Source of the DNA: Escherichia phage vB_EcoM_KWBSE43-6
Length of the DNA stretch: 64,000 nucleotides
Direction: 5' to 3' (one strand)
Sequence record: NC_048186.1
The notes below the pieces were generated by a model, which was given only the letters and a program-made list of their open reading frames with translations, had not been told where the DNA came from and ran no database searches. Shown here piece by piece: positions 16,552-49,527 of the stretch. The translations under genes were made by a program, and so were the position numbers. Position 1 is the first letter of the stretch, and the number at the start of each line of letters is the position of its first letter.

Positions 16552-16645
16552 AATATTTATTGAAAAACTTTACTTCTTCAATAACTGACGTATACTTCAA
16601 ATTGTAGTACGAACAAACAACAAATTGAAGAGAAGGAAATACATC

Positions 16646-27546: not shown

Positions 27547-27586
27547 TCTCCAACACCATATTCAAACTTGTGTGACGGAGATCAAC

Positions 27587-29368
27587 ATGGCTACACAAAC
27601 AGTTCCTTCACTCGACGTCAGGGCTTTCGAATACATTATCAAGCAGCGTATGAAAGCTGATCCGACCTTCAAGGATTATGACTTTGAAGGATCTGGTCTC
27701 AGTGCTATCATCCGTCTGCTCGCCTCTGACGCGAATGCTATCGGCTTTATGCAAAACATGCTGAACGGAGAGAGTCACCTCCAATCAGCCCAACAACGTT
27801 CTAATGTTGGTTTGTCATCTGCATTCTTGTCGTACACTCCTGAGAACTATCAGGCGGCGTATATGTATGCAAATGTTAAAGTCACTCCATATGACGCGAC
27901 GACAGCGCCAAGCGAAATCATCATGGATCGCAAGGTTATGTTTGTTGGGGCCAAAGATGGGAAGTCTTACAACTTCACCGTTGAGAAGCCTGTGTCCACA
28001 ACCCTGCGACCAGAAGGATATTATCTTTTTGAGAATGTAAAACTCATTCAGGGTGATTGGCTTTACAAAACGTATGATGTTGAAGGTAGCGCGATCAGTA
28101 CATACAAGATCCCATCTACTAATGTAGATATCAACCATCTGGTTGTCAACGTGCAGGAATCTGAGACTTCTGATGTTTCTTACACATTTGATCGTTATAA
28201 CAGTCCGTTTGATCTGAATCAATACGCTCGTCTTTATTTCGTGGAATTGGGACTTGATGGCTTCTACACTTTTGAATTTGGGGATGGTTATATTTGCCGT
28301 CGTGTTGAAGACGGGAACGTCGTGTTCTTGCAGTATCTGGAGACTTCCGGCGCGGACGGCAACGATATCACTTCAGTTTCATCCGCGACTGCAATCGCTG
28401 GGAACAACCTGGTGGATATCGAACTCGTATCAGAAAGAAGTGCAGGCGGTACTGATCCAGAGTCCATAGAGGATACCAAGCGTCTTGCCCCTCTGAGCTA
28501 TCAGGCGGATGGTGCAGCGGTGGCCGAAACAGACTATGCCTACCTGACAGAGAAACTCTTCTCGAACGTTCTACGGGCTAAAGGCTATGGTGGAGATACG
28601 CTCAATCCACCGGACCCTGGTTATGTTTACATCGCGGTAATCCCAACAGTTGGTGAAACACTTTCCGATGCTGAGAAAGCCGATATCGTGTCTACCCTTG
28701 ACAAATACAATGTCGGTTCTATAACTCCGAAGGTTGTGGATGCTGAAGTCACATATATCCAGGTCAATACCACGATATTCTGGGATCCAACTGCTACAGC
28801 GTATGCTGAAGACGGTTTGAAAACTCTTGTCAAGAAAGGTGTAGTCACCTGGGGAACCAATAATCTTGACAATTTTGATGAGCTGTTTGACAAAGAAGTT
28901 TTGCAAAACGCCATAACAGATATGGAGCGTTCCATCGTTTCCAATATTACTTCTGTCGCATACAAGCGTCACTTCAAACCAGAATATGGTGTTCTTGACA
29001 GCTTCACGTTTGATTTCGGTCGTTCCATCAAATCTGGCTCGGTTGTTATCAACGGGTTCAAGCCGCTTCCAGCTGAAGTTGACTTCACTTATTACATCCG
29101 GGATGTAAATGGTGTTCTCAATATGTACAAGGTCAGCACTTCTGATACGACGAAGGAATATCTGGTGCAGGCTGTTGGTGTCGTTGATTATGCGAATGGC
29201 GTCGTTGAACTTCAGCAGATCACAGTGTCAAACTATGATGAAGGCGGCGCGGCGATTGTCGTGTCTCCGGAAGGATTAAACCAGAACATCCAGGTTACAT
29301 CCAATCAGGTTCTTCGTATTGGTGATGTGACCGTAGACGCGGAGGTCCGCTATGTCCAAAGATCTTAA
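27587..29368 (+). CDS. baseplate wedge protein (T4 gp6-like)
   Basis: Start MATQTVPSLDV with GGAG SD (ORF track start 27368 is an upstream extension); motif DYDFEGS matches the T4 gp6 N-terminal region as recalled. Confidence 0.7.
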   Translation: MATQTVPSLDVRAFEYIIKQRMKADPTFKDYDFEGSGLSAIIRLLASDANAIGFMQNMLNGESHLQSAQQRSNVGLSSAFLSYTPENYQAAYMYANVKVTPYDATTAPSEIIMDRKVMFVGAKDGKSYNFTVEKPVSTTLRPEGYYLFENVKLIQGDWLYKTYDVEGSAISTYKIPSTNVDINHLVVNVQESETSDVSYTFDRYNSPFDLNQYARLYFVELGLDGFYTFEFGDGYICRRVEDGNVVFLQYLETSGADGNDITSVSSATAIAGNNLVDIELVSERSAGGTDPESIEDTKRLAPLSYQADGAAVAETDYAYLTEKLFSNVLRAKGYGGDTLNPPDPGYVYIAVIPTVGETLSDAEKADIVSTLDKYNVGSITPKVVDAEVTYIQVNTTIFWDPTATAYAEDGLKTLVKKGVVTWGTNNLDNFDELFDKEVLQNAITDMERSIVSNITSVAYKRHFKPEYGVLDSFTFDFGRSIKSGSVVINGFKPLPAEVDFTYYIRDVNGVLNMYKVSTSDTTKEYLVQAVGVVDYANGVVELQQITVSNYDEGGAAIVVSPEGLNQNIQVTSNQVLRIGDVTVDAEVRYVQRS

Positions 29369-30203
29369 TAACGGACATCTGGGCGTCAAATATGAGACGC
29401 CGTTGTTCTACCAGAACGATTTCCCTCTGTTCATTGAGTTCATGGATACGTTCTTCAATTGGCTGTATCGCCAAAACGGTTTCACTGAAGAAGAAATCCT
29501 TGCTTACCTGGCGGACACCAGTTGGCTGAATCCGGCTAGTGACGCCAGCCCGCTGATGCAGCTGGTAGACCTGAAGATACAGAAGACGCCCGGTACTGCT
29601 GTGCGTGATATGCTCCTCGACAAATATCTGGTCAGGACATTTGAGCAAATGATGGCGCTTGATACTGAAGAATTGTTGGACTCTGATGGGCGTCCTCTAT
29701 TTTCACCTGAAGACAAGAATTCAAGTATTGATGCCTGGTATAAAGAATTCGGGTTTCAAAGAACGGTTGACAAATCTTTTCCTGAATTTGGGTTCTTTGT
29801 ACCAGAAGGATCTGATGGTCTTATTACAGCGGATGGCAACCAGTTCTCGGTTTATATCGAGGGAACGCGCCGCCGGACATTAGATCACACCCGCTGGCTG
29901 AAATTGTTGAAGCATATCTATAAAATACGGGGAACGCAGAAAGCAATAGAATTGTTCTTCTGGATTTATTTCGGTGTTCCAGTTACTGTATATTATCCGA
30001 AAGAAGATTTGGCTGGTTTGGATGCTAACTTTGATTGTGATGGTGAAGTTGGTCTTCGTGATGATTACTACTATGACGAATACACATATGTCATAAGAAT
30101 ACCTGGCGACGTCGCAGATTTCGAAGGTGTATTCGATCGCGTGTTCCGTCAACACTTCCATCCATCTGGTTTCAAAGTATTCCTCGAAAGCACTAGGAGT
30201 TAA
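29352..30203 (+). CDS. baseplate/tail structural protein, hypothetical
   Basis: 283-aa ORF overlapping the end of the gp6-like gene; placement in baseplate module. Confidence 0.5.
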   Translation: MSKDLNNGHLGVKYETPLFYQNDFPLFIEFMDTFFNWLYRQNGFTEEEILAYLADTSWLNPASDASPLMQLVDLKIQKTPGTAVRDMLLDKYLVRTFEQMMALDTEELLDSDGRPLFSPEDKNSSIDAWYKEFGFQRTVDKSFPEFGFFVPEGSDGLITADGNQFSVYIEGTRRRTLDHTRWLKLLKHIYKIRGTQKAIELFFWIYFGVPVTVYYPKEDLAGLDANFDCDGEVGLRDDYYYDEYTYVIRIPGDVADFEGVFDRVFRQHFHPSGFKVFLESTRS

Positions 30204-34500: not shown

Positions 34501-34542
34501 TTTATAGAATTGAAAGCGTTTAACACTGCTACAGGATCTTAA
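31513..34542 (+). CDS. tailspike / tail fibre protein with beta-helix (pectate-lyase-like) repeats
   Basis: 1009-aa ORF; Gly-rich linker GAGGGGSGG; repetitive NxSGIRI / DVSILDV beta-helix-like coils. Confidence 0.75.
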   Translation: MANKPTKPNFPLGLESQDQSVFQEGILNNGVVEHGPDAVMTVPETPDASGVPSAVRYNEDDDQFEGYYNEGGWLPLGGGNGGRWELLPHAPSSLLQLGRAYLVDNTDGASTVVFPPPKRVGDSITVCDLFGKFSTYPLTVDGNGKSIYGSADSMTISTDNVSATFTWTGESRGWVITSGVGLGQGRVYSREIYSQILSATTPSITLSTQPSIVDVYVDGKRLKESLYTLDGYEVKFDPALASGSDVQIIQYIPIQLGAGGGGSGGTVITWEYNGGSAIGGETQIVLDVVVDSVSEIYIRGSRQQIGRGFTFDPATSTITLADELDAGDDVVVVINGDPTVYNQIDRTPWEVARAFNVSNNSVIMSNDRNTTLDGKTIVYDINSQNSWEIPAGIPVGAKISSVSSGILVYTPGNVSVTLTLLTTGTTVLKRLANSNSGNGGDMVLYKASSNAVERAISMALKDFVNLHDYYLSSDNGDWYPAFNRAFQDSQNILVPYGSHVVKTTVVPPSNSKIIGLGEASIVKSPDAIDAAATNLVTVFRATGSDNILISDITIDGGVNEVNTAKSFTRTVRFINCTNVSLLRVRVLNNADWSTSFEGGHDFTVKNYYQRSYRYQNTAINLNGGRDGLHFMDCYNVNADGLDIESGDDCVGITTTGTDLENITIRNLWGSSNIASLVIFNEEKDSNDVYYSANVTGLNISGIRIKKGGNARNIVRVIGYGANTQIKDVSILDVRGKAFNSYGIWVQGSVDHPVDTVHISNSDVGSQQAHGVLLQNIKRLSGNVYGYYEGVNSSASFVGVNMVSITGAMFTPGSRSSYGYGVQVLTSKDIVLTPDIESCGAGLFSSASGGNLRIVNCDGVTIPYGRAVGDVAVSYWGINFGGNTNLDVGLEFVFGGFTNSSLPNSYYLKAPAVDIKWKEASDGTVTMSIARGASIVRNSQGNFTITFNNDMRSTLFSWQATAYHNGALRLVRLASAVGTKTMTIQVTDTANAATFADFIELKAFNTATGS

Positions 34543-34543
34543 C

Positions 34544-34780
34544 ATGAATATAAATTGTGTTTTTGTGAAAGACGAAATTCCCCTTGAGAAACAAGATGAC
34601 TTTTTGAAATTATTTTTGGAAAGAATATCATTGGAATTCTCTGATGTCGTGATAACGGCAGAATGGGGAGACGATGAAACTGCTGTCGTTTCAGAGGATT
34701 GTTCTGATTACGTCAAAGCAAATTATCAAAGATTTGTAGACGGTCTTAAACAAGACCTCATTATTTTCGATTATTTCTAA
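34544..34780 (+). CDS. small acidic hypothetical protein
   Basis: 78-aa ORF starting 2 nt after tailspike stop. Confidence 0.45.
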   Translation: MNINCVFVKDEIPLEKQDDFLKLFLERISLEFSDVVITAEWGDDETAVVSEDCSDYVKANYQRFVDGLKQDLIIFDYF

Positions 34781-34819
34781 ACTAAATACCCCATATTGGT
34801 AACGCCTTATGGGGTATTT
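34781..34819 (+). promoter_or_regulatory. CTAAATA motif embedded in an 11-bp leader hairpin immediately upstream of tailspike start
   Basis: aaataccccat...atggggtattt stem ending 4 nt before ATG 34823; no SD; near-identical architecture to 31469-31509. Confidence 0.4.
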
Positions 34820-34822
34820 CAA

Positions 34823-37402: not shown

Positions 37403-37404
37403 TA

Positions 37405-37704
37405 ATGATTAAAGCAATCAAAGGGGATTTCACTGCTGTAACTTCAGTAGGAGAAATTTCATATCAATACGCTACTGTCCAGACTTTTCGGGGAGATGCA
37501 ACGAGCGTGACCGTAGATGTATTTCTTTCCGATCGCTGGATTATCCAACGGGACGGGATCAATGTGGTAGATGATACTGCGCCTGGATTTTTCAAATCTG
37601 TACAGTTTGCTCCTGATTGGCAGAGCAGTTTGAATATCATAGATCAGGCTTATGAATATTTGAAAAGTCTTCCAGAGTTTTCAAATTCTACTGATGTTGT
37701 ATAA
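37405..37704 (+). CDS. hypothetical small protein
   Basis: Start MIKAIKGDF with GGAGG SD. Confidence 0.5.
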   Translation: MIKAIKGDFTAVTSVGEISYQYATVQTFRGDATSVTVDVFLSDRWIIQRDGINVVDDTAPGFFKSVQFAPDWQSSLNIIDQAYEYLKSLPEFSNSTDVV

Positions 37705-37738
37705 AGTTAAGGGGGCTAGACCCCCTTAACTTATTTTT
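37705..37738. terminator. bidirectional terminator hairpin
   Basis: agttaagggggctagacccccttaact followed by tatttttc. Confidence 0.65.
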
Positions 37739-37976
37739 CTATTTGTACAACAATCCCGTTTTCTTTTAAAACAGCTTCCAATTGCTCAATATGTAGCCTT
37801 AAATTTGAGTAGACGGTCGCTGCGATCAAAATTTCTTCACTTAATTTAACAGGTGAGTGAAGTGCGTCTATGTTAAAATTTCCTCCTGACGCAATAACTT
37901 TTCCATCTTCGTTAAATGTGTAGATGCAAGGATCTGGTTTATTTTTCTTAATCTTTATCAGTATTTCTTGTTTCCC
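37731..37976 (-). CDS. small protein on opposite strand within tailspike cluster
   Basis: ORF track 37731..38096; likely start MGKQEILIK at 37976 with GGAGA SD; flanked by bidirectional terminator. Confidence 0.45.
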   Translation of the reverse strand, partial: GKQEILIKIKKNKPDPCIYTFNEDGKVIASGGNFNIDALHSPVKLSEEILIAATVYSNLRLHIEQLEAVLKENGIVVQIEK

Positions 37977-38049
37977 CATGATACATATCTCCAGCTGACT
38001 ATGATTTGTACAAACATTGTACCCGAAACCGTTCGTTTGGAATAATACA

Positions 38050-38056
38050 CTAAATA
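38050..38056 (+). promoter_or_regulatory. late-promoter-like motif CTAAATA
   Basis: Located 39 nt upstream of ATG 38095. Confidence 0.35.
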
Positions 38057-38094
38057 CAAGAATCAAGCCACAGAAAAACAACAGGAGATTCATC

Positions 38095-40098
38095 ATGAAT
38101 CCGCAATTTAGTCAGCCCGGTGGTTCCGTCTCTAAAGACGTGAACAAACAATCTATCGCACGTGTATTCTCTAAGAAAAAGAGTGATATATCATATTTGA
38201 AAGTTGGTTCTAGCGTTAATGGTTATGCTGTGCTATTCGAGCCGACAACCCAAACGTGTTGGTTTAGAGGGACTGCAACAGGTAATACAGTTTCTTGGAC
38301 TATCAACAATGATATCATGACTTTAGTGACTTCGGGTGGTTCCTTCACTCTGAACAAAGCCCAAGTTTGGGATTCTGTTACACTTTCCGGTGGAAATGCG
38401 ACGAGTTTGATCGGAACACCTTCTGGTGGAACGTTAGCTAATCTGTTATTACGGACTGTGTCTCCTGCTGAATTCGGATTAGAAAACGATCCAACAGGAG
38501 TCAAAGCAGATAAAAATACCATGGCTGTTCAAAAGGCTATTCGTTACCTGAATTCTTTGGGTGGTGGACGTCTCTTGTTCCCTACTGGGCAATACACATT
38601 TTGCTATGGAATTTGGTTGTTTGACAACATTCTGATCGATCTGAACGGTAGCATCTGTACTTTCAAAAACGCAACTTTTCCATTACGCAGTCGGGCATGT
38701 TTTGTTATGGGTTCTTCTTATGAAGTCAACCGTGACAAGGCTATGAGTTTTTATGATGACGGCACCTACATCAACAACCCAAACCCGACCAATACAGCAT
38801 ATGTGAATTTGCCGTTGGGAACGTTTTTGCGTGACAATGTCAATAAAGCGGAAATCAAAAACGCGCATATAATGAATGGGCATATCAAAGCCACGTTTGA
38901 TTCCCCTACTGCAAACGGTGCTTATGCAATAAATATGGCAAATGCGATGTATTGCACAGCACATGATTTATTCTTTACTGGATTCACAGAAGCCATAAAC
39001 ATGGGTTCGGATACTGGTTCTGAAACTCCGTCTTGCCATGGTTGTCTGGCTCATGATCTTTATATCGTTCAGCCTGACCAAAATAAAACTTATTATTCAA
39101 TTGGTTTTATTTCAAACTCCACCAACTGTTCCATTCAACGGGCGATACAATATCTGCCTTGCGCCGCCGGGACAGAGAACGGGTCGGGTGTGGCTACTAA
39201 CGTCGTTGAAGATTGTATTATAGAGGACATATTCATACCTTCTTTGGGTATTACGCAATCTTCTGAAGGGGTTCTTTTAAACAACGCAAAAGGATGTGTT
39301 GTGAGGAACATTTGTGTCCGAAACTGTAAAGTGGTGGTGGCTGTTTATTATGTCAGCACCAGCTATATCAGTGCTGACAAATGGAATCATATTTCTGGCA
39401 TAACTGGCCAAGGCACAGTTGCATTGATCGCAGTGCGCGGAAAATATACCACATTTACCGGATTCGCTGCGGATTCAACGACGCCGTATGAAATATATTT
39501 CGGGACTACAAACGGATCTAACAACCGTATTGAACAAGAACCGGCTAGTATGTATTTCACAGAGACATCAACGGTCAAACAATATTGGTATTGCAATAAC
39601 AACTACATCAAAGGATGGGTCGTCAAATATCTGTATTTGCGGCCAATGAATACACTGGTGAATGACAAATCTGTTGCATTCAACTGGAACATGAACAAAT
39701 CCGTGTCAGCCAACGATGACACCACGTTGTATTTCTTATGGGAAGTTCCTCCGTCCGTGAAGGCTATAAAGGCGGTCAAACTTTTCGCATATTACAATAC
39801 CAACGCAGTGGCTAAAGGAAGTAATATCAAAATAGAAGTTCGTAGGATGATAGCGTTTGATGGTAACGCTAACACGTTGCCGTACATAGAACCTGCCATT
39901 GGTGCAACTTCTACAGCAACGGTGGATCAACAGAATATAGCCATGAGCGCGGTTCATTCCGATACGGTTAGTCCCGGCATGGTAGTAACTGGCGATACTA
40001 CGAATGGCCTGTCGAATAGTGTTGACATTTTGGTTACGTTTGCCAACACGTCCAAAAACTCTTTAATGAAAGAAATGGAAATTACATACCTGGGGTGA
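38095..40098 (+). CDS. tailspike protein with conserved N-terminal module shared with 40429 gene
   Basis: Start MNPQFSQPGGS with AGGAG SD; N-terminal ~90 aa similar to the next tailspike (QTCWFRGTATG vs QTCWYRGTATG). Confidence 0.7.
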   Translation: MNPQFSQPGGSVSKDVNKQSIARVFSKKKSDISYLKVGSSVNGYAVLFEPTTQTCWFRGTATGNTVSWTINNDIMTLVTSGGSFTLNKAQVWDSVTLSGGNATSLIGTPSGGTLANLLLRTVSPAEFGLENDPTGVKADKNTMAVQKAIRYLNSLGGGRLLFPTGQYTFCYGIWLFDNILIDLNGSICTFKNATFPLRSRACFVMGSSYEVNRDKAMSFYDDGTYINNPNPTNTAYVNLPLGTFLRDNVNKAEIKNAHIMNGHIKATFDSPTANGAYAINMANAMYCTAHDLFFTGFTEAINMGSDTGSETPSCHGCLAHDLYIVQPDQNKTYYSIGFISNSTNCSIQRAIQYLPCAAGTENGSGVATNVVEDCIIEDIFIPSLGITQSSEGVLLNNAKGCVVRNICVRNCKVVVAVYYVSTSYISADKWNHISGITGQGTVALIAVRGKYTTFTGFAADSTTPYEIYFGTTNGSNNRIEQEPASMYFTETSTVKQYWYCNNNYIKGWVVKYLYLRPMNTLVNDKSVAFNWNMNKSVSANDDTTLYFLWEVPPSVKAIKAVKLFAYYNTNAVAKGSNIKIEVRRMIAFDGNANTLPYIEPAIGATSTATVDQQNIAMSAVHSDTVSPGMVVTGDTTNGLSNSVDILVTFANTSKNSLMKEMEITYLG

Positions 40099-40101
40099 TT
40101 T

Positions 40102-40347
40102 ATGCAAAATTCGGCTATGCGTGATGCGTTATCTCTATTTTATGCTTTATACGACTATTTGGTAAACAAAGTGGAATTGACAGAAACAGAAGAATCTGTC
40201 AAATCTAAAATAGAACAAGATATGGGGATACGTTGTGATGATTCATTGGATGAGCAAATCCTACAACTGCAATCAGAACTAAACCAAGCAGTTGAAGAGG
40301 GAGAACGTCACCAAATCTTAGATAATGTGGTTGAACTTTTGAAATAA
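40102..40347 (+). CDS. small helical hypothetical protein
   Basis: 81-aa ORF followed by terminator. Confidence 0.45.
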   Translation: MQNSAMRDALSLFYALYDYLVNKVELTETEESVKSKIEQDMGIRCDDSLDEQILQLQSELNQAVEEGERHQILDNVVELLK

Positions 40348-40349
40348 CA

Positions 40350-40375
40350 AAGCCCCTTCGGGGGCTTTTCTTTTG
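40350..40375 (+). terminator. rho-independent terminator
   Basis: agccccttcgggggct followed by tttcttttg. Confidence 0.65.
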
Positions 40376-40381
40376 AACAAA

Positions 40382-40388
40382 CTAAATA
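40382..40388 (+). promoter_or_regulatory. late-promoter-like motif CTAAATA
   Basis: Located about 40 nt upstream of ATG 40429. Confidence 0.35.
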
Positions 40389-40428
40389 CAAGGAGACATT
40401 GTTAGAAAAACAACATGAGGAACCACCC

Positions 40429-42705
40429 ATGAAAACGCAATTTAACCAATCACAAGGCTCAACTTCACGTGAGACGAATAAAGAAGCGATTGCTCGCATC
40501 TTTGGTCTCAAGAAGTCTCAAGTCGGATATCTGTCAACAACCACTCCAATTGATTCGTATGTCATATTGTTTGACAAAGAAACTCAGACGTGTTGGTATC
40601 GAGGTACAGCAACAGGTACTCCAATTTCTTGGAATGTCAATGGTGAATCATTATCTTTGACAACTAATTCTGGAACTTCTATATTAACTAAATCTAAACC
40701 ATGGGATGAATTGAATCAAAAACTATCATCACCACAAGGATTTGGTGCGATAGGCAAATTTTCTTCTTTGATTAATTTAAGAAATCATGAACCCACATAC
40801 CCTGGCGAATCTGTGATTTTAGAAAGAATAGCGTCTGGGAAACCGACAGTTAACGTAGTGCTAAGGCATGATCCTACTGATACCACGTCTGTGGATGACG
40901 ACATAAGCATATTTGTTACACCTGGTGGTGCTCGTTGGAAATTGGATATTAGTGATGGTTATGATATGAGACTGGCAGGGGTTAATGTTGATGGTACAAA
41001 CTTTTCCTCTGCTTTAAATAAAATAGTCAGTGTCATTATTTCAAAAATAGTAGCTAATGGGCGGGTAAATAATGTTGCTCGTCGCATAAAAGTTGTCCCG
41101 ACAAATTTTTTATGTCAATTCTTTTTAACTGATCCTGTTGATTTACCATCAATCGTGTCATGTTCTTTTTATGGGTCACCATTCATAGAATCACAAAACA
41201 TGACGGGACTCTATTCTTTCAGAATAGCCAACCAACCGTTCAGCACGTTGACCAAGGCTATGATGCAAGCAGAAACTTCGTGGCCTAATGGCCCGTTAAA
41301 CCAAGTTATCGGGAATAAAGTTATAAATTCAGGGGATGGCGGGAGAATAACTTTAAGGGGACCCGGATTTTCAGATGGTGTCCCAAGGATAGGTGTTATA
41401 TTAGGTAATGATGTGACCACAGATAAAGACGTGAGGGATTGTAGCGTAGAAGATATGAATATCTTCGGCTTCGACGCTTCTCATACGTTGGGTGGCTATT
41501 TTACCTTTATGGCAGGCTTCCGGAATTGTAACTTCTCGCGTTGTAATGTTGGTATGCGATTACCAAATATCACTGGAAACGCTGGGGAAAGAATGTGGTA
41601 TGATTCTTGCACTTTTGGTAACATGACAAGCCATGCATTACACGTATTTGGGGCTGGTACGTATAGCTTGGTCAACACTTCCATAGACTTCATAGGCGGG
41701 GATATGTTCCATTATGGATCTGATTCTTCTGTGTCTATAGAATTTATTTCAGGCCATATAGAAGGTATACAAGGGTATGATGCCGCGAAAGATACTCCGA
41801 CGAACTATTCTCAGGCCAGGGTTCATATCCATTCTGCCGTTCTGAGAGATCCGAGACAAGGAAGCGGCCAATACAGGGGTATAAGGCAACGTTGGTCTTG
41901 CCCTTCTTCTTCATTTGGGCAAGGACTTTCCGTAATAGACGAATCTATTTCCCCCGGAATGGAGAATACAAAACCGAACACTGCATATCCGTGCTTTATG
42001 GGTAGTCCAAGTAATACTGGTGTTTACATAGAAACCCCGCGAACTGCTAACCGGGGAACGCCGTGGTTGAACAGCTATAGTGATTCTTGTTCCAAGAGAA
42101 TAAATCCGACATATTTCTTTATAACTTCGGCGGGTACTGGGGAGTTAGGTCAGAGTCAATTAGTGTTGGATTATAACTTTTCATACACCAAAACTGGGGA
42201 TGGAATAGTAGAATATGGTGTAGTCGGTGACGCGGATGCAGATGGATTTATACCGTTCAAGATTACTTGTAATGATGTCAATACAGTCATTAATTTGTTC
42301 TGTAATAACCGATCTAAAGCCACCAACGGAAACAAGCCTTTATGGGGAGCTTGCTCAGTTAAATTGGCGAATTCCGTGGGTGATGTCATGATCGCTCCAC
42401 TTAGGGCAACATATTTAGGTTCTACTATCACGTCGATATATAATGACACCACGAAGACGGTAACAAGTACGTTAAATCCTGTTCTTCGTTCAACAAACGT
42501 GGGAGTTGCTCTTAACCTTAGAGATCTGTTGAACGGAAGCGGACTAACAACTAATGACTATCAGGCGACTTATCCTCGATATGTTACTGGTTACTACCAG
42601 GGCAATGATTTCTTTGTCCCCGGTTTCCGCCTTTGGAATTTCACAGGAACCATATATTTGAAATTGCCTATTTGGTGGTTCGAAGGTGATAACTTTGGAG
42701 CATAA
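40429..42705 (+). CDS. tailspike protein with conserved N-terminal module
   Basis: Start MKTQFNQSQG with GAGGAA SD; shares N-terminal module with 38095 gene; Gly/Ser/Asn-rich beta-helix-like body. Confidence 0.7.
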   Translation: MKTQFNQSQGSTSRETNKEAIARIFGLKKSQVGYLSTTTPIDSYVILFDKETQTCWYRGTATGTPISWNVNGESLSLTTNSGTSILTKSKPWDELNQKLSSPQGFGAIGKFSSLINLRNHEPTYPGESVILERIASGKPTVNVVLRHDPTDTTSVDDDISIFVTPGGARWKLDISDGYDMRLAGVNVDGTNFSSALNKIVSVIISKIVANGRVNNVARRIKVVPTNFLCQFFLTDPVDLPSIVSCSFYGSPFIESQNMTGLYSFRIANQPFSTLTKAMMQAETSWPNGPLNQVIGNKVINSGDGGRITLRGPGFSDGVPRIGVILGNDVTTDKDVRDCSVEDMNIFGFDASHTLGGYFTFMAGFRNCNFSRCNVGMRLPNITGNAGERMWYDSCTFGNMTSHALHVFGAGTYSLVNTSIDFIGGDMFHYGSDSSVSIEFISGHIEGIQGYDAAKDTPTNYSQARVHIHSAVLRDPRQGSGQYRGIRQRWSCPSSSFGQGLSVIDESISPGMENTKPNTAYPCFMGSPSNTGVYIETPRTANRGTPWLNSYSDSCSKRINPTYFFITSAGTGELGQSQLVLDYNFSYTKTGDGIVEYGVVGDADADGFIPFKITCNDVNTVINLFCNNRSKATNGNKPLWGACSVKLANSVGDVMIAPLRATYLGSTITSIYNDTTKTVTSTLNPVLRSTNVGVALNLRDLLNGSGLTTNDYQATYPRYVTGYYQGNDFFVPGFRLWNFTGTIYLKLPIWWFEGDNFGA

Positions 42706-42706
42706 T

Positions 42707-42961
42707 ATGTATACCATACATAAAATTCCTTGTGACATAGTCTACAATTCTTTGTTAGAGCATCATAAGTTTTTCATATCTTTAAAGAAAGATTTGGCAA
42801 AGCGTATTAAGAATTCTACGTCAGGATTCAAATATGAAAATTTCAAATTTTGTTATGACAAAGATGATGTAAATCAATATTATCTAAAATTAGATTCAAA
42901 ATGTCGTGACTTTGAAACCCAATTAAACGAAATTTGGTTTCATTCAGTACACCAACAATGA
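42707..42961 (+). CDS. hypothetical small protein
   Basis: ORF track 42686..42961; ATG 42707 has GGAG SD. Confidence 0.4.
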   Translation: MYTIHKIPCDIVYNSLLEHHKFFISLKKDLAKRIKNSTSGFKYENFKFCYDKDDVNQYYLKLDSKCRDFETQLNEIWFHSVHQQ

Positions 42962-42971
42962 GGATTATGGT

Positions 42972-43232
42972 ATGAAATTTAGTATAATTGAAACAGAAGT
43001 TAACCCAGGTTCTGAACTAAGGAATTTCTTAGTCGTTCCTGCAGGAAGTGAAAAAGAAACCGAAGACAATTGGATTCTTTCTTTCAAACATGATTCTGTC
43101 GATACTTTGCAAGAAACCGCTTCTCGTTATCTCATCGCATTCGGTGTCTTGTCCTCGTTGTCACTCAGTTTAGACAACACTGCTATTGTTGAATTGGTGA
43201 AAACTTTAGATAACACTTCAGTTTCAAGTTGA
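42972..43232 (+). CDS. hypothetical small protein
   Basis: 86-aa ORF followed by terminator. Confidence 0.45.
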   Translation: MKFSIIETEVNPGSELRNFLVVPAGSEKETEDNWILSFKHDSVDTLQETASRYLIAFGVLSSLSLSLDNTAIVELVKTLDNTSVSS

Positions 43233-43238
43233 TGCAAT

Positions 43239-43265
43239 TAGCCCCCTCGGGGGCTTTATTCTTCA
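43239..43265 (+). terminator. rho-independent terminator
   Basis: agccccctcgggggct followed by ttattcttc. Confidence 0.6.
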
Positions 43266-43286
43266 TACGATGGGTTGTGTGGTATA

Positions 43287-43293
43287 CTAAATA
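43287..43293 (+). promoter_or_regulatory. late-promoter-like motif CTAAATA
   Basis: Located 35 nt upstream of ATG 43328. Confidence 0.35.
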
Positions 43294-43327
43294 ATTCCAA
43301 GACAAAACTCTATAGATGGAGTACAAA

Positions 43328-46300
43328 ATGCAACAATTGAATCTTAACCGCCGCCCTTATTGGGACGACTGGAATCCAGAGAAGCGTTTCAGCCGCATCC
43401 TGTTCCGCCCAAATCCAATCAAAGTACAGACTCGTGAGCTGAACCAGCTGCAGACTATCCTACAGGATCAAATTGAGAAGATCGGTAATCATCTTTTCAA
43501 AGACGGTTCCATGGTAATCCCAGGCGGTTTGACTATTACCAATTCGGCTGTATCCATGAAGTTCCAGCTGGCGGGTGGGAGCGAATTCACCGACCTGGAA
43601 GGCATTCAAGAACTGTACGTGATTGGCAAAGACAACAACGCCAAGGCCCGTGTATTGTCTCTGGAACGCTACACCAGCGAACCGGATATGATGTTCTGTA
43701 TCCTGGAAATGACCGAGTCCGGCACTGCCGATGGATTCAGCCCGAACGATAATCTATACTTCAACACTTATGATGTGAATGATAACTTCATCCGTATCGG
43801 TTATGGTGTTGCACAGACTGTCGGTGGCTCTATTGTTGCTCGGATGACCAAAGGCGTCTATTTCGTTCGTGGGTTCTTCCTCGACGTTGACGATGATATG
43901 TTGGTTGTCAACAAATATGCAAATAACACCAGCCATCGCGTCGGGTTCAAAGTTACTGAAGAAATCGTGACTGAAGAGCAAGATAGTAGTCTGTTCTCCA
44001 ATGCCCAGGGTACACCGAACACCAAAGCGCCGGGCGCTCATCGCCTTCGTTTGGATCTGAGTCTTCAGGCGTTTGATTATGACGCAGAAGTCGAAGATTT
44101 CGTTGAGCTGGCGAAGATCAAAGACGGTAAAATCCAGTCTATGGTCACCCAATCGACGTACAATATCCTCGAAGACACTATGGCCCAGCGCACCTATGAG
44201 CAAGCTGGTGACTACAACGTGTCTACTCACCAGATCGACCTTCGCGAACACCTGAAAGAAAACAACAATGGTGGGGTATATACTCCGGCCGAAGGTGGCG
44301 ATGAAAGCAAACTGGTTGCGGTAATGAAGCCGGGCATTTCTTATGTCCGTGGTCGTCGTATTGAGAACGTCGGGGAAGAACTCGTCGTCATTGATAAGGC
44401 GCGTGATACAGACCTCCTGAACAACACGCCAGTTGCTGTAGCGACAGGTAATTTCCTGACGACCAAGAACTCTAAAGGTGTTCCTGTTATCAGCCGTAGT
44501 ATTCGCTACAAATTGCTGAATGCTTCTGGTGTTACCCAAGCGACTGCCCTGTGTATCTCCGCCGACCGTACCGGGACGGAATTCCGTCTGTATATGCGTG
44601 ACCTGGTCGTCACTGGTGATATGAGCACGGTCACCAAAGTCGCTTACGAAGAAAGCGGGACCACGATGTTCTCGGCAGCGTTGGAAACTAATCAGTTCTC
44701 ACAAAGTTCATCTATGGATCTCATATTTGAACTGCCTGTCTTTGGCGTGAAAACTTTGGCTCCGACCGGAACGATTGATATCAACTACACCGTCTTGCGT
44801 TCTTACAAAATTACGCTGGATGCGTCAGGTAACGGTTCTATATCTGCACCGCTGGGATACAGTTTTTCTCCGGAATTCTCACTCTACTCCGGAGCGAAAT
44901 CTGACGGAACCGCCGCCCAGATCGATATCTCCAGCAGCCTGTCTCTGACCGGGACACCAGTTGGGTCGGCTCTGCAGATTTCCCTCGGTTCCGGTAATGC
45001 TCTGCAATCTATCAACCTGTTGGCGCTGATGGTACGCACCACTGCTATCATCAAAACCAAAACTGTTACGACTGCTACTGAGACTGTGATCTTCACCAAC
45101 CAGGCCAGCATCCAGCTTGCGAACCATGACGGCTACAAATTGACTTCCGTCAAAAATGCCAATGGTGCTGACGTGACCTCTAACTTCACTCTGGATGGCG
45201 GGCAGCGTGATGCGGCGTACTACAAGTCCAGTCTGATATCGGCCACTGGAGCCATTTCAGGCGCGTATACCGTGGAATACACGTATTTCGCTCACAGTAC
45301 TGGTGACTTCTTTACCGCTGATTCGTATACTTCTATTGATTACAAATCAATCCCGAATTATACGTCGAGCACGTCGGGTACAGTGTATGGTCTGGCCGAC
45401 AGTATAGACTTCCGCCCTAAAATCACCAATGGTGCGTCTGATACTGATATGGTGCGGCCTAACACGGCGATCATCATGGACGTTGAATATTATCTGCCTC
45501 GCATTGATGCTGTGTACCTGGCAGACAACGGCGTTTTCAACGTTGCTCGTGGTATCAGTTCGAACAACCTGGCGGCTCCGGCTATTCCAGCAAACGCCAT
45601 GCGTTTGTACGAACTGTTGATTCCCCCATATACTCCGGATATTGACGATATTCAGATCCGTACTATCGACAACCGCCGCTACACAATGCGGGATATCGGT
45701 AAGCTGGACACCCGTATATCGAACGTCGAGTATTACACAACACTGTCTCAGCTGGAATCTTCGGCTATGACTCAGCAAGTATTCGACCCGGTAACAGGCA
45801 ACCCACGTTACAAAAATGGTATCGCTGCTGATCCGTTCAAAGACTTTCGTCTGATTGATGATCTGTCTTCCGACTGGATGGGTTCCGTAGACACCGACAA
45901 TGGTCGCCTGCGTCCGTTTGTACAACAAAACGCGATTGACCTGGTTCCGGATGGGTGGGACAAGGTTATGGACGGTATGGTCGTGTGCAAATACACACCG
46001 GAAATTTCTGTTAATCAGGAATATGCGACGACGACGATCAACGTCAACCCATATGCTGTGTTTAACTGGACGGGGTTCCTCAAACTCAATCCGACAACAG
46101 ATTACTGGTTTGAAAACTACTACGTTGCCCCTCGTGTTATCAACGAGACGATCAATACCCGTGGTGCTGTCCAAGAAGGTACGGTTTATGGTACATGGCG
46201 GACTGTGTCTGTATCTGAGCGGGTATGGGAACCGCACGGCGCGGGCGGCGTATGGTGGGGATATCGTTATAGAACCACTGTGTCTACACGTGATGTTTCG

Positions 46301-48166
46301 ACTTACACGTACACGGATACAACCACCACTTCACTTTCTGGCGAACAGATTGTTGAAACTCAGGTTATTCCGTACATGCGTTCAATCGAAATCAACTTTG
46401 ACGCCAGCGGCCTGCGCCCGTTCACCAGAATGTATGCATTCTTCTCTGGTCGGGATGTGAATCTGTACTGCAAACCGAACGGCGGGGCATATGGTGCACC
46501 GTTGACGACGGACGCCAACGGTAATCTGAAAGGTGTATTCAAAGTTCCGCAGAATAACACCATTAAATTCAATACTGGTGACAACGTCTTCCGGTTAACT
46601 GACAGCCCGACTGATAGCAAGTCTGCTGATGATACTCTGACGAATGCCGAGATTGTTCATAAGTCCTTTGGTAAGAAACAAGGTATCCAGAAGACCTATG
46701 TTAACACACGTGTCCTGGGTTATACTGTATCGACTAAATCTGAAACAACTTCGTCTGAAGCCGTTGTTGGTCAGTGGCGTGATCCTATCGCACAATCTTT
46801 CATGGTGGCGACCAGCATCGGTGGTGAATACATTGAAGGTGTGGAAGTGTTCTTCTCAAGCAAATCACGTGATGTTCCAGTAACTCTGGAAATCCGTGAG
46901 ATGAGCAATGGCCTTCCGGCAAGTACTGTTATCACCCGGAAAACTTTGAACCCGTCTGACGTCAAAGTATCGAATGACTCTTCCCTCGGGACGAAATTCA
47001 CTTTCGATTATCCAGTATATCTGCAGGCTGGCACAGAGTTTGCTATCGTTCTTCTGGCTAACACCCAGGATTACAATGCTTACATTGCAGAAATGGGTAA
47101 AAAGAATTTGCTGTCGAACGAATATATCGCCAAACAACCGTATACTGGCGTGTTCTTCACCTCGTCAAACGGTTCAACCTGGTCTCCAAACCAAATGGCG
47201 GATATGAAATTCCGTGTGTATCGCTGTAATTTTGCTGCTGCCGACAACGTGGTGACATTTACTCCGAACGCCGGGCCTAAAATCCGTCCTCTTGGTCTGA
47301 ACGTGTTGAACTGCGTCAACGGTTCTACTGTGGTCACAGTTTACGCACCGGGCCATGGTCTTGTTGCGGGCAACTCTGTGACGTTGTCAGAACTGACGGG
47401 CGGCTGCGGCTTTACCGCAGAGCAACTGAATAAAGTTCACACTGTCACGGATGCGAGCTATACTTCATTCAAGATTGATGTTGGCGCAGCTGCGGACAGC
47501 GATGGACAGATTGGTGGTGAAGACGGTTCTTTCTTGGGCAATTACCTGGTAGATATGTTCTATGCCAGCGTGACCAATTCAGCCCTGGAAGGTTCTATAT
47601 TGAAACTGGAATACCGTTATCGTGATTCTACTTCCAATTCTATGTCTGATTGGGCTGAGTTTGAATCTGATACTGATGTTCCTTTGCCAACAGAAGGTAT
47701 TTATCGTCAGGCTGGGGATTTCCAGGTAAGAGCCACCATGACTCGCAGCGCGAGCAATGCGTACACGGCACCAATGATTGATGGTGATGACTTAACCGTG
47801 GTTCTCAACTCGCATGGCGTAGATCCTTTCGAGGACGTTTTCCGCTATGTGACCAAGGACGTAAGTTTTGACAACCCGTGTACAACTTTGAAAATGTACT
47901 TCGGCGCGATGTTGCCTTCTCAGTCCACCATGACTGTACAGGTCAAACTTCTGCGCCCAGGGCAAGAAATGGATTCGATCGAATGGGAAACGGTTACGCC
48001 GAATTCTCCTCTGGTCAACGATGGTTCCGCATTCTTTGAATATGAATACGATAAGACCGTCGACAGCAGCAGTCCATTTTCAGCCCTGAAAGTCAGAGCA
48101 TTAATTCGCGGAAGCCGGATAGCCCCACCTTCCTGCAAAGATTTCCGCTTGATTGCTCTGGCATAA
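43328..48166 (+). CDS. very large virion structural protein (about 1612 aa), baseplate or fibre component
   Basis: Uninterrupted ORF; start MQQLNLNRRPYWDDWN with GGAG SD; Thr/Ser/Gly-rich beta-type composition; position between tailspikes and neck genes. Confidence 0.65.
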   Translation: MQQLNLNRRPYWDDWNPEKRFSRILFRPNPIKVQTRELNQLQTILQDQIEKIGNHLFKDGSMVIPGGLTITNSAVSMKFQLAGGSEFTDLEGIQELYVIGKDNNAKARVLSLERYTSEPDMMFCILEMTESGTADGFSPNDNLYFNTYDVNDNFIRIGYGVAQTVGGSIVARMTKGVYFVRGFFLDVDDDMLVVNKYANNTSHRVGFKVTEEIVTEEQDSSLFSNAQGTPNTKAPGAHRLRLDLSLQAFDYDAEVEDFVELAKIKDGKIQSMVTQSTYNILEDTMAQRTYEQAGDYNVSTHQIDLREHLKENNNGGVYTPAEGGDESKLVAVMKPGISYVRGRRIENVGEELVVIDKARDTDLLNNTPVAVATGNFLTTKNSKGVPVISRSIRYKLLNASGVTQATALCISADRTGTEFRLYMRDLVVTGDMSTVTKVAYEESGTTMFSAALETNQFSQSSSMDLIFELPVFGVKTLAPTGTIDINYTVLRSYKITLDASGNGSISAPLGYSFSPEFSLYSGAKSDGTAAQIDISSSLSLTGTPVGSALQISLGSGNALQSINLLALMVRTTAIIKTKTVTTATETVIFTNQASIQLANHDGYKLTSVKNANGADVTSNFTLDGGQRDAAYYKSSLISATGAISGAYTVEYTYFAHSTGDFFTADSYTSIDYKSIPNYTSSTSGTVYGLADSIDFRPKITNGASDTDMVRPNTAIIMDVEYYLPRIDAVYLADNGVFNVARGISSNNLAAPAIPANAMRLYELLIPPYTPDIDDIQIRTIDNRRYTMRDIGKLDTRISNVEYYTTLSQLESSAMTQQVFDPVTGNPRYKNGIAADPFKDFRLIDDLSSDWMGSVDTDNGRLRPFVQQNAIDLVPDGWDKVMDGMVVCKYTPEISVNQEYATTTINVNPYAVFNWTGFLKLNPTTDYWFENYYVAPRVINETINTRGAVQEGTVYGTWRTVSVSERVWEPHGAGGVWWGYRYRTTVSTRDVSTYTYTDTTTTSLSGEQIVETQVIPYMRSIEINFDASGLRPFTRMYAFFSGRDVNLYCKPNGGAYGAPLTTDANGNLKGVFKVPQNNTIKFNTGDNVFRLTDSPTDSKSADDTLTNAEIVHKSFGKKQGIQKTYVNTRVLGYTVSTKSETTSSEAVVGQWRDPIAQSFMVATSIGGEYIEGVEVFFSSKSRDVPVTLEIREMSNGLPASTVITRKTLNPSDVKVSNDSSLGTKFTFDYPVYLQAGTEFAIVLLANTQDYNAYIAEMGKKNLLSNEYIAKQPYTGVFFTSSNGSTWSPNQMADMKFRVYRCNFAAADNVVTFTPNAGPKIRPLGLNVLNCVNGSTVVTVYAPGHGLVAGNSVTLSELTGGCGFTAEQLNKVHTVTDASYTSFKIDVGAAADSDGQIGGEDGSFLGNYLVDMFYASVTNSALEGSILKLEYRYRDSTSNSMSDWAEFESDTDVPLPTEGIYRQAGDFQVRATMTRSASNAYTAPMIDGDDLTVVLNSHGVDPFEDVFRYVTKDVSFDNPCTTLKMYFGAMLPSQSTMTVQVKLLRPGQEMDSIEWETVTPNSPLVNDGSAFFEYEYDKTVDSSSPFSALKVRALIRGSRIAPPSCKDFRLIALA

Positions 48167-48449
48167 ATAAAATTGAAATGGCGGGGGATTCCCCCGCCCT
48201 CTTGAGAGGATATGTGTATGCGTGGAATGAAAGTACAGGGGCACGCATCAATGGTACGCAGTAGCTCTTGCCCCGGAGCAATCATCTGCACTGACCATGT
48301 TGCTGGAATGGCGGCGCTTCGGTCTCGCCAAGATACTGAACAAAGAGAGGCTAAGATTGCTGCGCAATCGGCCCAAATTGATCAGCTTGAAGCAACCGTT
48401 AAAATGTTGGCAGAAAAACTCGGGATTACAATCCCGGACGGGGGCGAAA

Positions 48450-48788
48450 ATGACAACGCAGAATAACAGCTTGTTTAATGTTAAGGAAATCTTGACTGCT
48501 GCCGTTGCATCTCTATTGGTCTCTTCTGCGACATTCGTATGGTTTATGGGTGGATTAGAAAACCGTGTGAATGTTCTGGAAAAAGACTCTGGGAAAGTTG
48601 ACCAGATTTTGATAAAGGTTAATGATCTCAGCGAAAGAATGGCTGTCATGAACAACGATATATCCTACGTTAAACAAAACATGACTGAATTGAAATTAAA
48701 CAGCAGCAGCCTTTCTGACGACGTTAGAACATTGCGCCTGACTGTTTCAGATCTACAGCGCAAGGAGGGTGATAATGGCCGTCAATAA
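48450..48788 (+). CDS. hypothetical protein with TM segment and coiled-coil
   Basis: ORF track 48297..48788; likely start MTTQNNSLFNV; hydrophobic LTAAVASLLVSSATFVWFMGG. Confidence 0.4.
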   Translation: MTTQNNSLFNVKEILTAAVASLLVSSATFVWFMGGLENRVNVLEKDSGKVDQILIKVNDLSERMAVMNNDISYVKQNMTELKLNSSSLSDDVRTLRLTVSDLQRKEGDNGRQ

Positions 48789-49527
48789 GATTCGGGACAA
48801 AGATTCATTTATGAATTATGTCCTTCGTAAATTGGGTGCGCCTGTCATCCAAATCAACCTCGACAAAACACAAGTTGAAGACGCGGTTGATGATGCTTTA
48901 CAGAAGTTTTGGGAGTACCATCGCGACGGTAGCCAAGATGCATTCTTCCTTTACCAGGTGAAGCAGGAAGACATCGATAAAGGATATATCACCTTTCCAG
49001 AAGATATCGATGACGTTGTCGAAGTTATCCAAGGGCCACCAATTGAATCTATCGGTAACTGGGCAACCCCCCAGTGGCAGATGGCTCAGGCGATGTTAGT
49101 GCCCAAAGCTGCTTTGGTATCTATCCGTCTTATCGATTATGTCTCTATGCAGCAGCGCCTTTCCGATATCACCAGCGTCCTCAATGTCCGCAGGGCATTC
49201 GTCTACAAGAAATTCCAGCGCCGTCTGTACCCTCAATTCTCAGCTGTTATCGACGAAGTCCTGGCGTTCAAGTGCTACCAGAACATCGACCCCACAGCGG
49301 AAGAGAACACAGAAGCATGGAATGACATGTGGCTGAAGGCTTATGCGACCGCATTGGTAAAACGCCGCTGGGCGGAAGTGCTCAAAAAGGCCCGAGGCAT
49401 CCGTCTCCCTGGCGGGATAGAACTGGATGGCGATAGTATGTTCAGCGAGGCCGAGGCCGAGATCGAGCGCCTGGAAGAAGAACTGCGTACTGGTCAGCAG
49501 TATCCCATCGACTTCTTTATGGGATAA
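48775..49527 (+). CDS. neck protein (T4 gp13-like by position)
   Basis: Start MAVNKIRDKD with GAGGG SD; synteny with gp13-gp14-gp15-gp16-gp17 order. Confidence 0.5.
   Translation: MAVNKIRDKDSFMNYVLRKLGAPVIQINLDKTQVEDAVDDALQKFWEYHRDGSQDAFFLYQVKQEDIDKGYITFPEDIDDVVEVIQGPPIESIGNWATPQWQMAQAMLVPKAALVSIRLIDYVSMQQRLSDITSVLNVRRAFVYKKFQRRLYPQFSAVIDEVLAFKCYQNIDPTAEENTEAWNDMWLKAYATALVKRRWAEVLKKARGIRLPGGIELDGDSMFSEAEAEIERLEEELRTGQQYPIDFFMG

Follow-up and report, generated by a model that had tools for sequence, protein, structure and literature searches.

VrlC of a Taipeivirus-like Escherichia phage is a homologue of the baseplate tripod protein of Staphylococcus phage 812

The window analysed here, 64,000 nucleotides of Escherichia phage vB_EcoM_KWBSE43-6 (NC_048186.1), comes from a Taipeivirus-like member of the Ackermannviridae. 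Its vrlC gene, at 43328-48166, encodes an ordinary member of the known VrlC/DUF4815 family and a homologue of the baseplate tripod protein of Staphylococcus phage 812. The product is probably the Gram-negative version, at 1.6 thousand residues, of a Herelleviridae baseplate protein known as the tripod in phage 812 (gp119) and as the pyramid in Listeria phage A511 (gp106), with the role proposed below; we infer that it acts as a trimeric peripheral baseplate tripod whose CBM-like domains would contact a conserved cell-surface feature.

The ORF listing of the window has a single plus-strand ORF at 43316..48166, 1616 aa from its first ATG, which is the longest in the window (the runner-up has 1062 codons). 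The second ATG, at 43328, is favoured as the start because a GGAG lies upstream of it and because it agrees with the annotated CDS boundaries in relatives; CDS 12001-16839 of phi1_146041 corresponds to positions 1-4839 of the query. The ATG at 43316 was dropped on the same two grounds. The predicted product has 1612 aa, a mass of 177.3 kDa, and a pI of 4.9, and at the base composition of the window the probability of 1612 stop-free codons by chance is about 2e-35. A sequence-only reading had described a single uninterrupted 4.8-kb ORF at 43328-48166, 1612 aa long and placed between tailspikes and neck genes, and all of this holds. The gene and its surroundings comprise the following features.

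29352..30203, plus strand: baseplate wedge subunit of 283 aa, short and gp7-like (Pfam PF23786 at 3.4e-150).
31513-42705, upstream of vrlC: four tailspike/tail-fibre ORFs.
43240..43255, plus strand: terminator-like hairpin AGCCCCCTCGGGGGCT with a T-rich tail (consensus scan, sequence).
43319..43322, plus strand: Shine-Dalgarno-like GGAG, with a spacer of 5-6 nt to ATG 43328 (direct sequence reading).
43328..48166, plus strand: VrlC/DUF4815 gene (ORF, CDS start in relatives, Pfam DUF4815, PHROG 358/877, PDB phmmer).
48180..48198, no strand assigned: perfect GC-rich hairpin GGCGGGGGATTCCCCCGCC, 14 nt past the vrlC stop codon.
48227..48466, plus strand: small conserved ORF of 79 aa with a coiled-coil C-terminus, directly after vrlC (tblastn).
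48769-49527, downstream of vrlC: gp13-like head-tail adaptor 'Ad2' ORF.

The order of the module is thus gp6-like, gp7-like, tailspikes, vrlC, and the 79-aa ORF; the ORFs beyond 'Ad2' correspond in phi1_146041 to head closure 'Hc2' and the tail sheath stabiliser. The AGCCCCCTCGGGGGCT hairpin, a putative terminator, separates the tailspike cassette from vrlC, and the GGCGGGGGATTCCCCCGCC hairpin was scored as a terminator on the minus strand only (consensus scan). The T4-type late promoter TATAAATA is absent upstream of vrlC, and its one match window-wide is no more than expected by chance; sigma-70-like matches within the vrlC ORF are at background level in the consensus scan.

No frameshift or gene split was found in relatives by megablast, by tblastn, or among distant homologues. 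At least 80% of the gene is covered in one place in 252 of 258 phage records (megablast), and tblastn gives 416 records in which at least 80% of vrlC is covered; distant VrlC homologues are likewise one protein each, of about 1600 aa.

Family membership rests on several searches. Pfam PF16075 (DUF4815) matches VrlC with 199.8 bits against a cut-off of 30 (E 8.3e-59), and it also appears in the precomputed annotation of the homologues listed, the best 120 of 864. A phmmer search of the PDB finds, at 4e-56, a 1152-aa DUF4815 chain of the Staphylococcus phage 812 baseplate, which occurs in 15 PDB entries and 81 chains. This chain is identified as the tripod protein gp119 because the gene order of Kayvirus S25-3 (wedge J, 852 aa, 173 aa, DUF4815 1152 aa, 52 aa, 640 aa, 123 aa, 458 aa) matches gp117-gp123 of 812 (PMC13433997). 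BLASTP aligns VrlC with the Kayvirus tripod at 4e-48 in four colinear segments, and in a five-way MAFFT alignment the two are colinear to both termini, down to the last residue. AlphaFold2 models of the two halves of VrlC (pLDDT 81 and 74) agree with this: in Foldseek, aa 1-900 match 9eui_Q at 1.8e-22 with a global TM of 0.21, and aa 640-1612 match 9euf_0 at 3e-36 with a TM of 0.48 over 918 columns. The global TM-scores are low (0.2-0.48) because domain arrangements differ; only 812 tripod chains match the models with high significance. The C-terminal model also matches the CBM22 tandem 4xup (probability 0.99 in Foldseek), a parallel to the CBM16/CBM61-like domains (base and fin) of the 812 tripod (PMC13433997), although a CBM-like fold is no proof of glycan binding.

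The sequence-only reading had called the protein beta-rich and rich in Thr, Ser, and Gly, which the composition count (T 9.6%, S 8.6%, V 7.9%, G 7.3%) and AlphaFold2/DSSP bear out; the model is nearly all beta, with helical segments only at 32-56, 281-291, and 787-815. Six regions can be set against the tripod.

43328..43543, plus strand: aa 1-72, a conserved stretch at the N-terminus that holds the first long helix (aa 32-56).
43829..44434, plus strand: aa 168-369, beta-rich, aligned to Kayvirus tripod residues 71-267.
44456..45175, plus strand: aa ~377-616, beta-sandwich domains (pLDDT around 90, five-way MAFFT block map).
45359..47242, plus strand: aa 678-1305, core DUF4815 region, aligned to tripod residues 365-946.
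47405..47722, plus strand: aa ~1360-1465, extra beta domain with no Kayvirus tripod counterpart (MAFFT).
47723..48163, plus strand: aa 1466-1612, C-terminal beta-sandwich (pLDDT 85-90).

The N-terminal segment is 33% identical over 72 aa to 812/Kayvirus tripod residues 3-70 and keeps 43-47% identity even in distant homologues. The core shares 27% identity with the Kayvirus tripod over 654 columns (BLASTP 4e-48); in the model it contains the long helix 787-815, CBM-like beta-sandwiches, and two long beta-hairpins predicted with low confidence at about aa 934-1007 and 1122-1152. The C-terminal beta-sandwich aligns weakly (BLASTP E 0.011) to residues 1016-1129 of the Kayvirus tripod, which presumably form its anchor/hook end, and domain 4 of the phmmer alignment, which covers this part, is also weak; the terminus itself carries the conserved motif P..KDFR.IALA. 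Three blocks of VrlC, about 460 residues together, are without an equivalent in the solved tripod (MAFFT): besides the extra beta domain, a block of about 90 aa (aa 75-165) is missing, and aa ~377-616 mostly missing, from the 1152-aa Gram-positive tripods. Pfam Phage_spike_2 over aa 1351-1421, which overlaps the extra beta domain, is not significant (E 0.063; 14.1 bits, below the cut-off of 25). No LysM family match is found in VrlC at E <= 0.1 (Pfam); a LysM-like hook may belong to phages of Gram-positive hosts alone and probably does not define the family.

VrlC is present in about 1700 isolated phage genomes, among them cyanomyophages, Herelleviridae, Ackermannviridae, and rhizobial and Vibrio phages. 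The protein of the window is 100% identical to database cluster P0001 and 99.8% identical to that of phi1_146041, and the Klebsiella relatives P01, Menlow, and 0507-KN2-1 cover vrlC fully at 96-97.6% nucleotide identity; relatives label the gene "VrlC", hypothetical, or tail protein. The adjacent tailspike cassette is at most 39% covered by any phage record and is hypervariable (also PMC10199534). Every 40-aa window of VrlC is 62-96% identical across Ackermannviridae of Klebsiella, Salmonella, Dickeya, and Erwinia. Judged from these alignments, VrlC is evenly conserved along its length and across hosts, and does not look like a strain-specific receptor binder.

Relatives place the protein in the virion. 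LIMEstone1 ORF157, encoded beside tailspikes, is a structural protein of 177.55 kDa identified by 21 peptides in mass spectrometry (PMC3296691), against the 177.3 kDa predicted here; Sajous1 VrlC (gp140) is one of the top five proteins by mass-spectrometry spectra (PMC10892097), and the proteome of PhiM12, too, contains abundant VrlC (PMC4621102). A 2024 review already proposes VrlC as the Ackermannviridae baseplate "prongs", which are directed away from the head, towards the cell (PMC11721090). The literature searched contained no cryo-EM structure of an Ackermannviridae baseplate and no experimental study of VrlC/VriC; for this family we infer where VrlC sits, that it is trimeric, and what it does.

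In the proposed role, VrlC would homotrimerise via its helical spine, dock by the N-terminal apex of the trimer on a peripheral baseplate element, and form the prong-like structures beneath Ackermannviridae baseplates. Variable tailspikes would first bind and cut capsule or O-antigen; a conserved cell-surface feature would then be met by the CBM-like beta-sandwich domains of the VrlC trimers. The trimers would next rearrange, as in 812, to help hold the baseplate to the cell and to stabilise or trigger its post-contraction state. The 283-aa gp7-like wedge subunit is offered as a candidate docking partner. Homologues of the 812 arm scaffold gp117 and arm segment gp118 were not detected near vrlC by BLASTP, so the docking mode may differ from that of 812; the Kayvirus arm scaffold gives nothing significant against the 283-aa neighbour and the 417-aa one at 30208-31461 (E >= 0.5, BLASTP only), and PDB sequence searches with these two proteins give no match.

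The product of the 79-aa ORF (48227-48466) probably co-assembles with VrlC or serves as an assembly factor. The ORF is present in 281 Ackermannviridae records (tblastn); the annotation given to it in Ag3, Maynard, Magnus, and others reads 'virion structural protein'. Similar small ORFs lie 3' of vrlC in Vibrio D506, Stenotrophomonas BUCT608, phiM9, and Kayvirus S25-3; homology to the Gram-positive small ORFs is weak (12% identity). It is likely the positional counterpart of A511 gp107 and Kayvirus ORF114, and a VrlC partner.

A bolder joint reading, rather unlikely as a whole, makes the VrlC trimer of 1.6 thousand residues a conserved second-step adhesin and trigger in Ackermannviridae and other Gram-negative myophages. 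An RBP/TssK-shoulder-like N-terminal domain would dock on loops of the gp7-like wedge protein, which would be unusually short and TssG-sized, to form the prongs; after clearance of capsule or O-antigen by exchangeable tailspikes, the CBM-like domains would bind a conserved envelope structure, and 812-like refolding of VrlC would commit the baseplate to contraction. The three inserted blocks and the 79-aa protein would be Gram-negative adaptations.

It is rather unlikely that VrlC is purely architectural, enlarging and stabilising the baseplate, including the post-contraction lattice, and binding no host receptor. The even conservation across phages of differing hosts, with no variable tip, would suit such a role, as would the tripod-tripod contacts that stabilise the contracted 812 baseplate and the finding, cited in PMC11721090, that LPS alone triggers DNA release by the kuttervirus Det7. 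However, the models suggest that VrlC retains CBM-like and adhesin-like beta-sandwich folds, the homologues in 812 and A511 turn towards the cell wall and touch it, and the prongs face the cell.

The sequence-only reading had proposed a scaffold with a gp7- or gp34-like role anchoring the multi-tailspike complex. This is supported in part: VrlC is probably a structural protein of baseplate type; a gp7- or gp34-like role is unsupported, since no similarity in sequence or fold to gp7 or gp34 is found by Pfam, PHROGs, PDB phmmer, or Foldseek, and a distinct gp7-like gene is already present in the window. We doubt, too, that VrlC anchors a branched tailspike complex, for instance as baseplate partner of the TSP4 anchor domain, which is still without an identified one (PMC8825819). 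The gene directly adjoins the tailspike cassette, a tripod fibre domain contacts RBP2 in contracted 812 (PMC13433997), and A511 immunolocalisation was read as receptor-binding gp108 bound to the VrlC homologue (as summarised in PMC4621102). In the solved 812 baseplate, however, the arm scaffold carries both the receptor-binding proteins and the tripods, and the tripods are not the anchor; most of the roughly 1700 VrlC phages (cyanophages, Herelleviridae) have no branched tailspike complex, and gp10-like branching adaptors are found in phages that are not known to have VrlC (PMC11721090). The anchor claim is left unsupported.

A host-range-determining receptor binder or depolymerase, or a bacterial 'virulence-associated' factor, is very improbable: database labels ('virulence-associated protein', 'adsorption associated tail protein', 'sialidase domain') and a mention of VrlC in a machine-learning depolymerase paper point that way, but no catalytic or beta-helix family (Pfam, PHROGs) and no enzyme among significant structural matches (Foldseek) is found, vrlC is conserved while host specificity varies, and the 'virulence' name is inherited annotation, not tested function. 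The name VrlC derives from a Dichelobacter nodosus genomic island. VrlC was likewise rejected as a tailspike or capsule depolymerase, as neither a beta-helix catalytic domain nor N-terminal gp10-like adaptor modules are found (Pfam, PHROGs, Foldseek) and vrlC is conserved where the neighbouring tailspikes vary.

The family and the prong proposal are already known, and importance at the level of the window is small because vrlC is a well-conserved, already annotated orthologue. VrlC nevertheless ranks among the most widespread large baseplate proteins, and for phage engineering vrlC is the conserved gene that bounds the exchangeable tailspike cassette on its right-hand side. Should VrlC prove to act as a conserved secondary adhesin or as a trigger, tailspike swaps alone could change host range only within limits.

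Among known systems, VrlC is absent from T4 and its close relatives (PMC4621102); its likeness to T4 gp7 (wedge core protein) and gp34 (fibre shaft) is that of large structural proteins of the baseplate/fibre module, without homology, and the gp7-like protein is encoded separately here. The A511 pyramid protein gp106, from a double-layered baseplate, and Deep-Blue gp176 and Vp4 gp120 ('Tail fiber/VrlC') of Bacillus phages belong to the same family (PMC4621102, PMC11406892) and have CBM-like C-terminal folds; the A511 facts come from secondary sources (PMC9863714, PMC11406892, PMC4621102). This type, too, has a small ORF downstream (gp107, or a 63-64-aa 'chaperone'), but it differs in its 1150-1170 aa, its Gram-positive hosts, and its attachment to the gp105 arm, and reorientation on adsorption is described for those phages only. 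The best fold match, 812 gp119 (PDB 9EUF/9EUI/9TIC, others; PMC13433997), shares with VrlC DUF4815, end-to-end colinearity, helical 'spine' segments, and several CBM-like beta-sandwich domains, and the Kayvirus tripod gene also lies in the wedge/receptor-binding module with a small ORF after it. VrlC exceeds 812 gp119 by about 460 residues, its three additional blocks lying at aa ~75-165, ~377-616, and ~1360-1465; the aligned parts are only 26-33% identical, and no gp117/gp118 arm proteins are detected adjacent to vrlC (BLASTP). Because the host is Gram-negative, the teichoic-acid and peptidoglycan contacts proposed for 812 cannot apply as such; a LysM-like peptidoglycan-binding role, as put forward for the hook of 812, is hardly plausible on the outer side of a Gram-negative outer membrane. 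The closest counterparts are the Ackermannviridae orthologues (VrlC/VriC) of ViI, CBA120, LIMEstone1 (ORF157), Sajous1 (gp140), 0507-KN2-1, and Menlow, which share 69-99.8% amino acid identity, equal length, and the position between tailspikes and neck genes, and are detected in virions.

The vrlC gene of the Escherichia phage vB_EcoM_KWBSE43-6 window (NC_048186.1) lies in a single open frame, 43316..48166 (+), the longest in the ORF listing of the window (runner-up 1062 codons); at the local base composition, the chance of a stop-free run this long is about 2e-35. The frame opens with two in-frame ATGs, the second of which, at 43328, has a GGAG 6 nt upstream and is exactly the CDS start annotated in close relatives, so the coordinates 43328-48166 and the length of 1612 aa assigned in the sequence-only reading are correct. 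The product (predicted mass 177.3 kDa, pI 4.9; T 9.6%, S 8.6%, G 7.3%) is almost wholly beta with three helical segments in AlphaFold2 models, and the description of an uninterrupted 4.8-kb, beta-rich, Thr/Ser/Gly-rich ORF holds. Its placement between tailspikes and neck genes is confirmed by four tailspike genes upstream and a head-tail adaptor downstream; in the close relative phi1_146041, the genes after the adaptor are annotated as head closure and then tail sheath stabiliser. The features of the region are:

27368-29368: gp6-like wedge gene, upstream
29352-30203 (+): short gp7-like wedge gene, 283 aa (PF23786, 3.4e-150)
30208-31461 (+): 417-aa protein (PHROG 3838)
31513-42705 (+): four tailspike/tail-fibre genes, upstream of vrlC
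43240-43255: terminator-like hairpin before vrlC
43328-48166 (+): vrlC
48180-48198: GC-rich hairpin after vrlC
48227-48466 (+): 79-aa ORF directly 3' of vrlC
48769-49527: gp13-like head-tail adaptor ORF, downstream of vrlC

The gene product almost certainly belongs to the VrlC/DUF4815 family. The window's VrlC matches DUF4815 in Pfam at 199.8 bits (cut-off 30), families of unknown function in PHROGs and, among PDB sequences, has one strong match (4e-56), a 1152-aa 'DUF4815 domain-containing protein / ORF65' that accounts for 81 chains across 15 Staphylococcus phage 812 baseplate entries. The 812 proteins comprise gp117 (arm scaffold), gp118 (arm segment), gp119 (tripod), gp121 (RBP1), a coupler, and gp123 (RBP2) (PMC13433997). 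The Kayvirus gene order (wedge J, 852 aa, 173 aa, DUF4815 of 1152 aa, 52 aa, 640 aa, 123 aa, 458 aa) corresponds to this gp117-gp123 set, and the solved homologue is thus the tripod protein. BLASTP aligns VrlC with the Kayvirus protein (4e-48) through N-terminal, central, and C-terminal segments in order, and a five-way alignment with VrlC is colinear up to both termini. AlphaFold2 models of the window's VrlC from 34-sequence alignments, covering aa 1-900 (pLDDT 81) and aa 640-1612 (pLDDT 74), have strong Foldseek matches to 812 tripod chains only (1.8e-22 for the first; 3e-36, TM 0.48 over 918 columns, for the second). Two long beta-hairpins, modelled with low confidence at about aa 934-1007 and 1122-1152, probably fold only within the trimer.

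vrlC is an ordinary, already annotated gene of a known, widespread family, and the window adds nothing special on the role of VrlC in Gram-negative phages. The source phage belongs to the Ackermannviridae and resembles the genus Taipeivirus. Megablast with vrlC returned 258 records (252 covering at least 80%), including about 35 Klebsiella myophages, such as P01, KP6, Menlow, KpS110, and 0507-KN2-1, at 96-97.6% nucleotide identity and 100% coverage, and lower-identity matches in Salmonella, Escherichia, Dickeya, Erwinia, and Serratia phages. Database labels include 'hypothetical protein', 'tail protein', 'VrlC protein', and 'virulence-associated protein', and an identical protein is already in a large protein collection (P0001). 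By tblastn, the family is present in 1692 isolated phage genomes, with hosts including Synechococcus (377), Staphylococcus (342), Bacillus (246), Salmonella (164), and Vibrio (73). Among the best 120 of 864 homologues, P0114-P0120 are a metagenomic DUF4815 subgroup about 2030 aa long (two with a precomputed PF16190 match) and show that modular growth of the family extends past its 1150-aa and 1600-aa versions.

VrlC proteins are tied to large, double-layered baseplates; cyanomyophages, ViI-like phages, and Gram-positive myophages have them, T4 does not, and the A511 member, gp106, is placed at the baseplate by immunolocalisation (PMC4621102). Trimers of gp106 are described as pyramids that reorient to face the cell wall (PMC9863714, PMC11406892). 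The 812 baseplate carries 12 tripod trimers docked on arm-scaffold loops (PMC13433997); these tripods refold extensively upon attachment. From the resemblance of VriC to baseplate proteins of A511 and phi812, a 2024 review proposed that this protein may make up the prong-like structures beneath Ackermannviridae baseplates (PMC11721090); our literature search turned up no experimentally solved baseplate of this family. Presence in virions is established in relatives by mass spectrometry, for the LIMEstone1 orthologue ORF157 (177.55 kDa, 21 peptides, tailspike-adjacent gene; PMC3296691) and for Sajous1, where VrlC is within the top five by spectra (PMC10892097). The sequence-only reading was right in its broad view that the gene encodes a structural protein of the baseplate.

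A VrlC homotrimer would form a tripod at the baseplate periphery, the 'prongs', and would dock via its conserved N-terminal apex. Once the tailspikes had cleared capsule or O-antigen, CBM-like domains would be presented to the cell surface, and a rearrangement like that of the 812 tripod would hold the baseplate in place and lend stability to its contracted form. This functional picture is moderately probable; taken together with the family assignment, it is likely.

Across Ackermannviridae of different hosts, VrlC keeps 62-96% identity in every 40-aa window, and these windows reveal no variable tip. The tailspike cassette, 31513-43327, is at most 39% covered by any phage record (best: Bullseye_ER20, cp21, and UPM 2146), and its G+C is 40-42%, versus 48-50% for vrlC and 46-50% for the flanks. 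vrlC is the conserved right flank of an exchangeable receptor-binding cassette, a position noted before (PMC10199534). Such even conservation beside variable tailspikes speaks against a strain-specific receptor binder, and is compatible with a structural role as well as with binding of a conserved envelope feature; a purely architectural role for VrlC is plausible. The gp7- or gp34-like scaffold anchoring a multi-tailspike complex, suggested in the sequence-only reading, is unsupported: no similarity backs the analogy, and the 812 architecture speaks against a tailspike anchor. It keeps a low probability, since VrlC might be the baseplate partner of the anchor domain of tailspike TSP4. A depolymerase, host-range, or 'virulence' role is contradicted by the absence of catalytic signatures and by the conservation pattern. 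The tailspike/tail-fibre products (1009, 868, 693, and 768 aa) have conserved N-terminal adaptors and diverge in their bodies; the first gene has a GH28-like match (1.7e-06), and the capsule specificities of the cassette may form a new combination. A 91-aa and an 86-aa ORF (42686-43232, +) separate the last of these genes from the 43240-43255 hairpin, and the 86-aa ORF has no Pfam match.

The 283-aa gp7-like and 417-aa proteins are candidate attachment sites for VrlC and/or the tailspike TSP4. The 283-aa wedge subunit is very short, similar in size to T6SS TssG; the LIMEstone1 counterpart of the 417-aa protein is a virion protein (50% peptide coverage) labelled 'fibritin (Wac)'. By BLASTP, neither of the two shows homology to the arm scaffold of 812. 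The 79-aa ORF begins MKVQGH, has a coiled-coil C-terminus, and is kept in 281 Ackermannviridae genomes, often annotated as 'virion structural protein' (Ag3, Maynard, Magnus). Vibrio D506, Stenotrophomonas BUCT608, rhizobial phiM9, and Kayvirus likewise have small coiled-coil ORFs after vrlC, so the 79-aa product may act as a conserved partner of VrlC. Pharokka-style annotations (e.g., phi1_146041) omit it in favour of an overlapping 164-aa ORF in a different frame. The window's 163-aa ORF (48297-48788, +) is probably called too long: PHROG 3961 (112 aa) covers residues 52-163 only, and residue 52 is an internal Met (about nt 48450), after which comes a hydrophobic stretch resembling a transmembrane segment. 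In Vibrio phage D506 a homologous 122-aa protein comes after the small ORF.

In A511, gp107 occupies the same position as these small ORFs. Tandem CBM22 modules match the C-terminal half of VrlC in Foldseek (probability 0.99), consistent with the 812 tripod, whose 'base' and 'fin' are CBM16/CBM61-like. Compared with the Gram-positive tripods, the 1.6-kaa VrlC has three added blocks, at aa ~75-165, ~377-616, and ~1360-1465.
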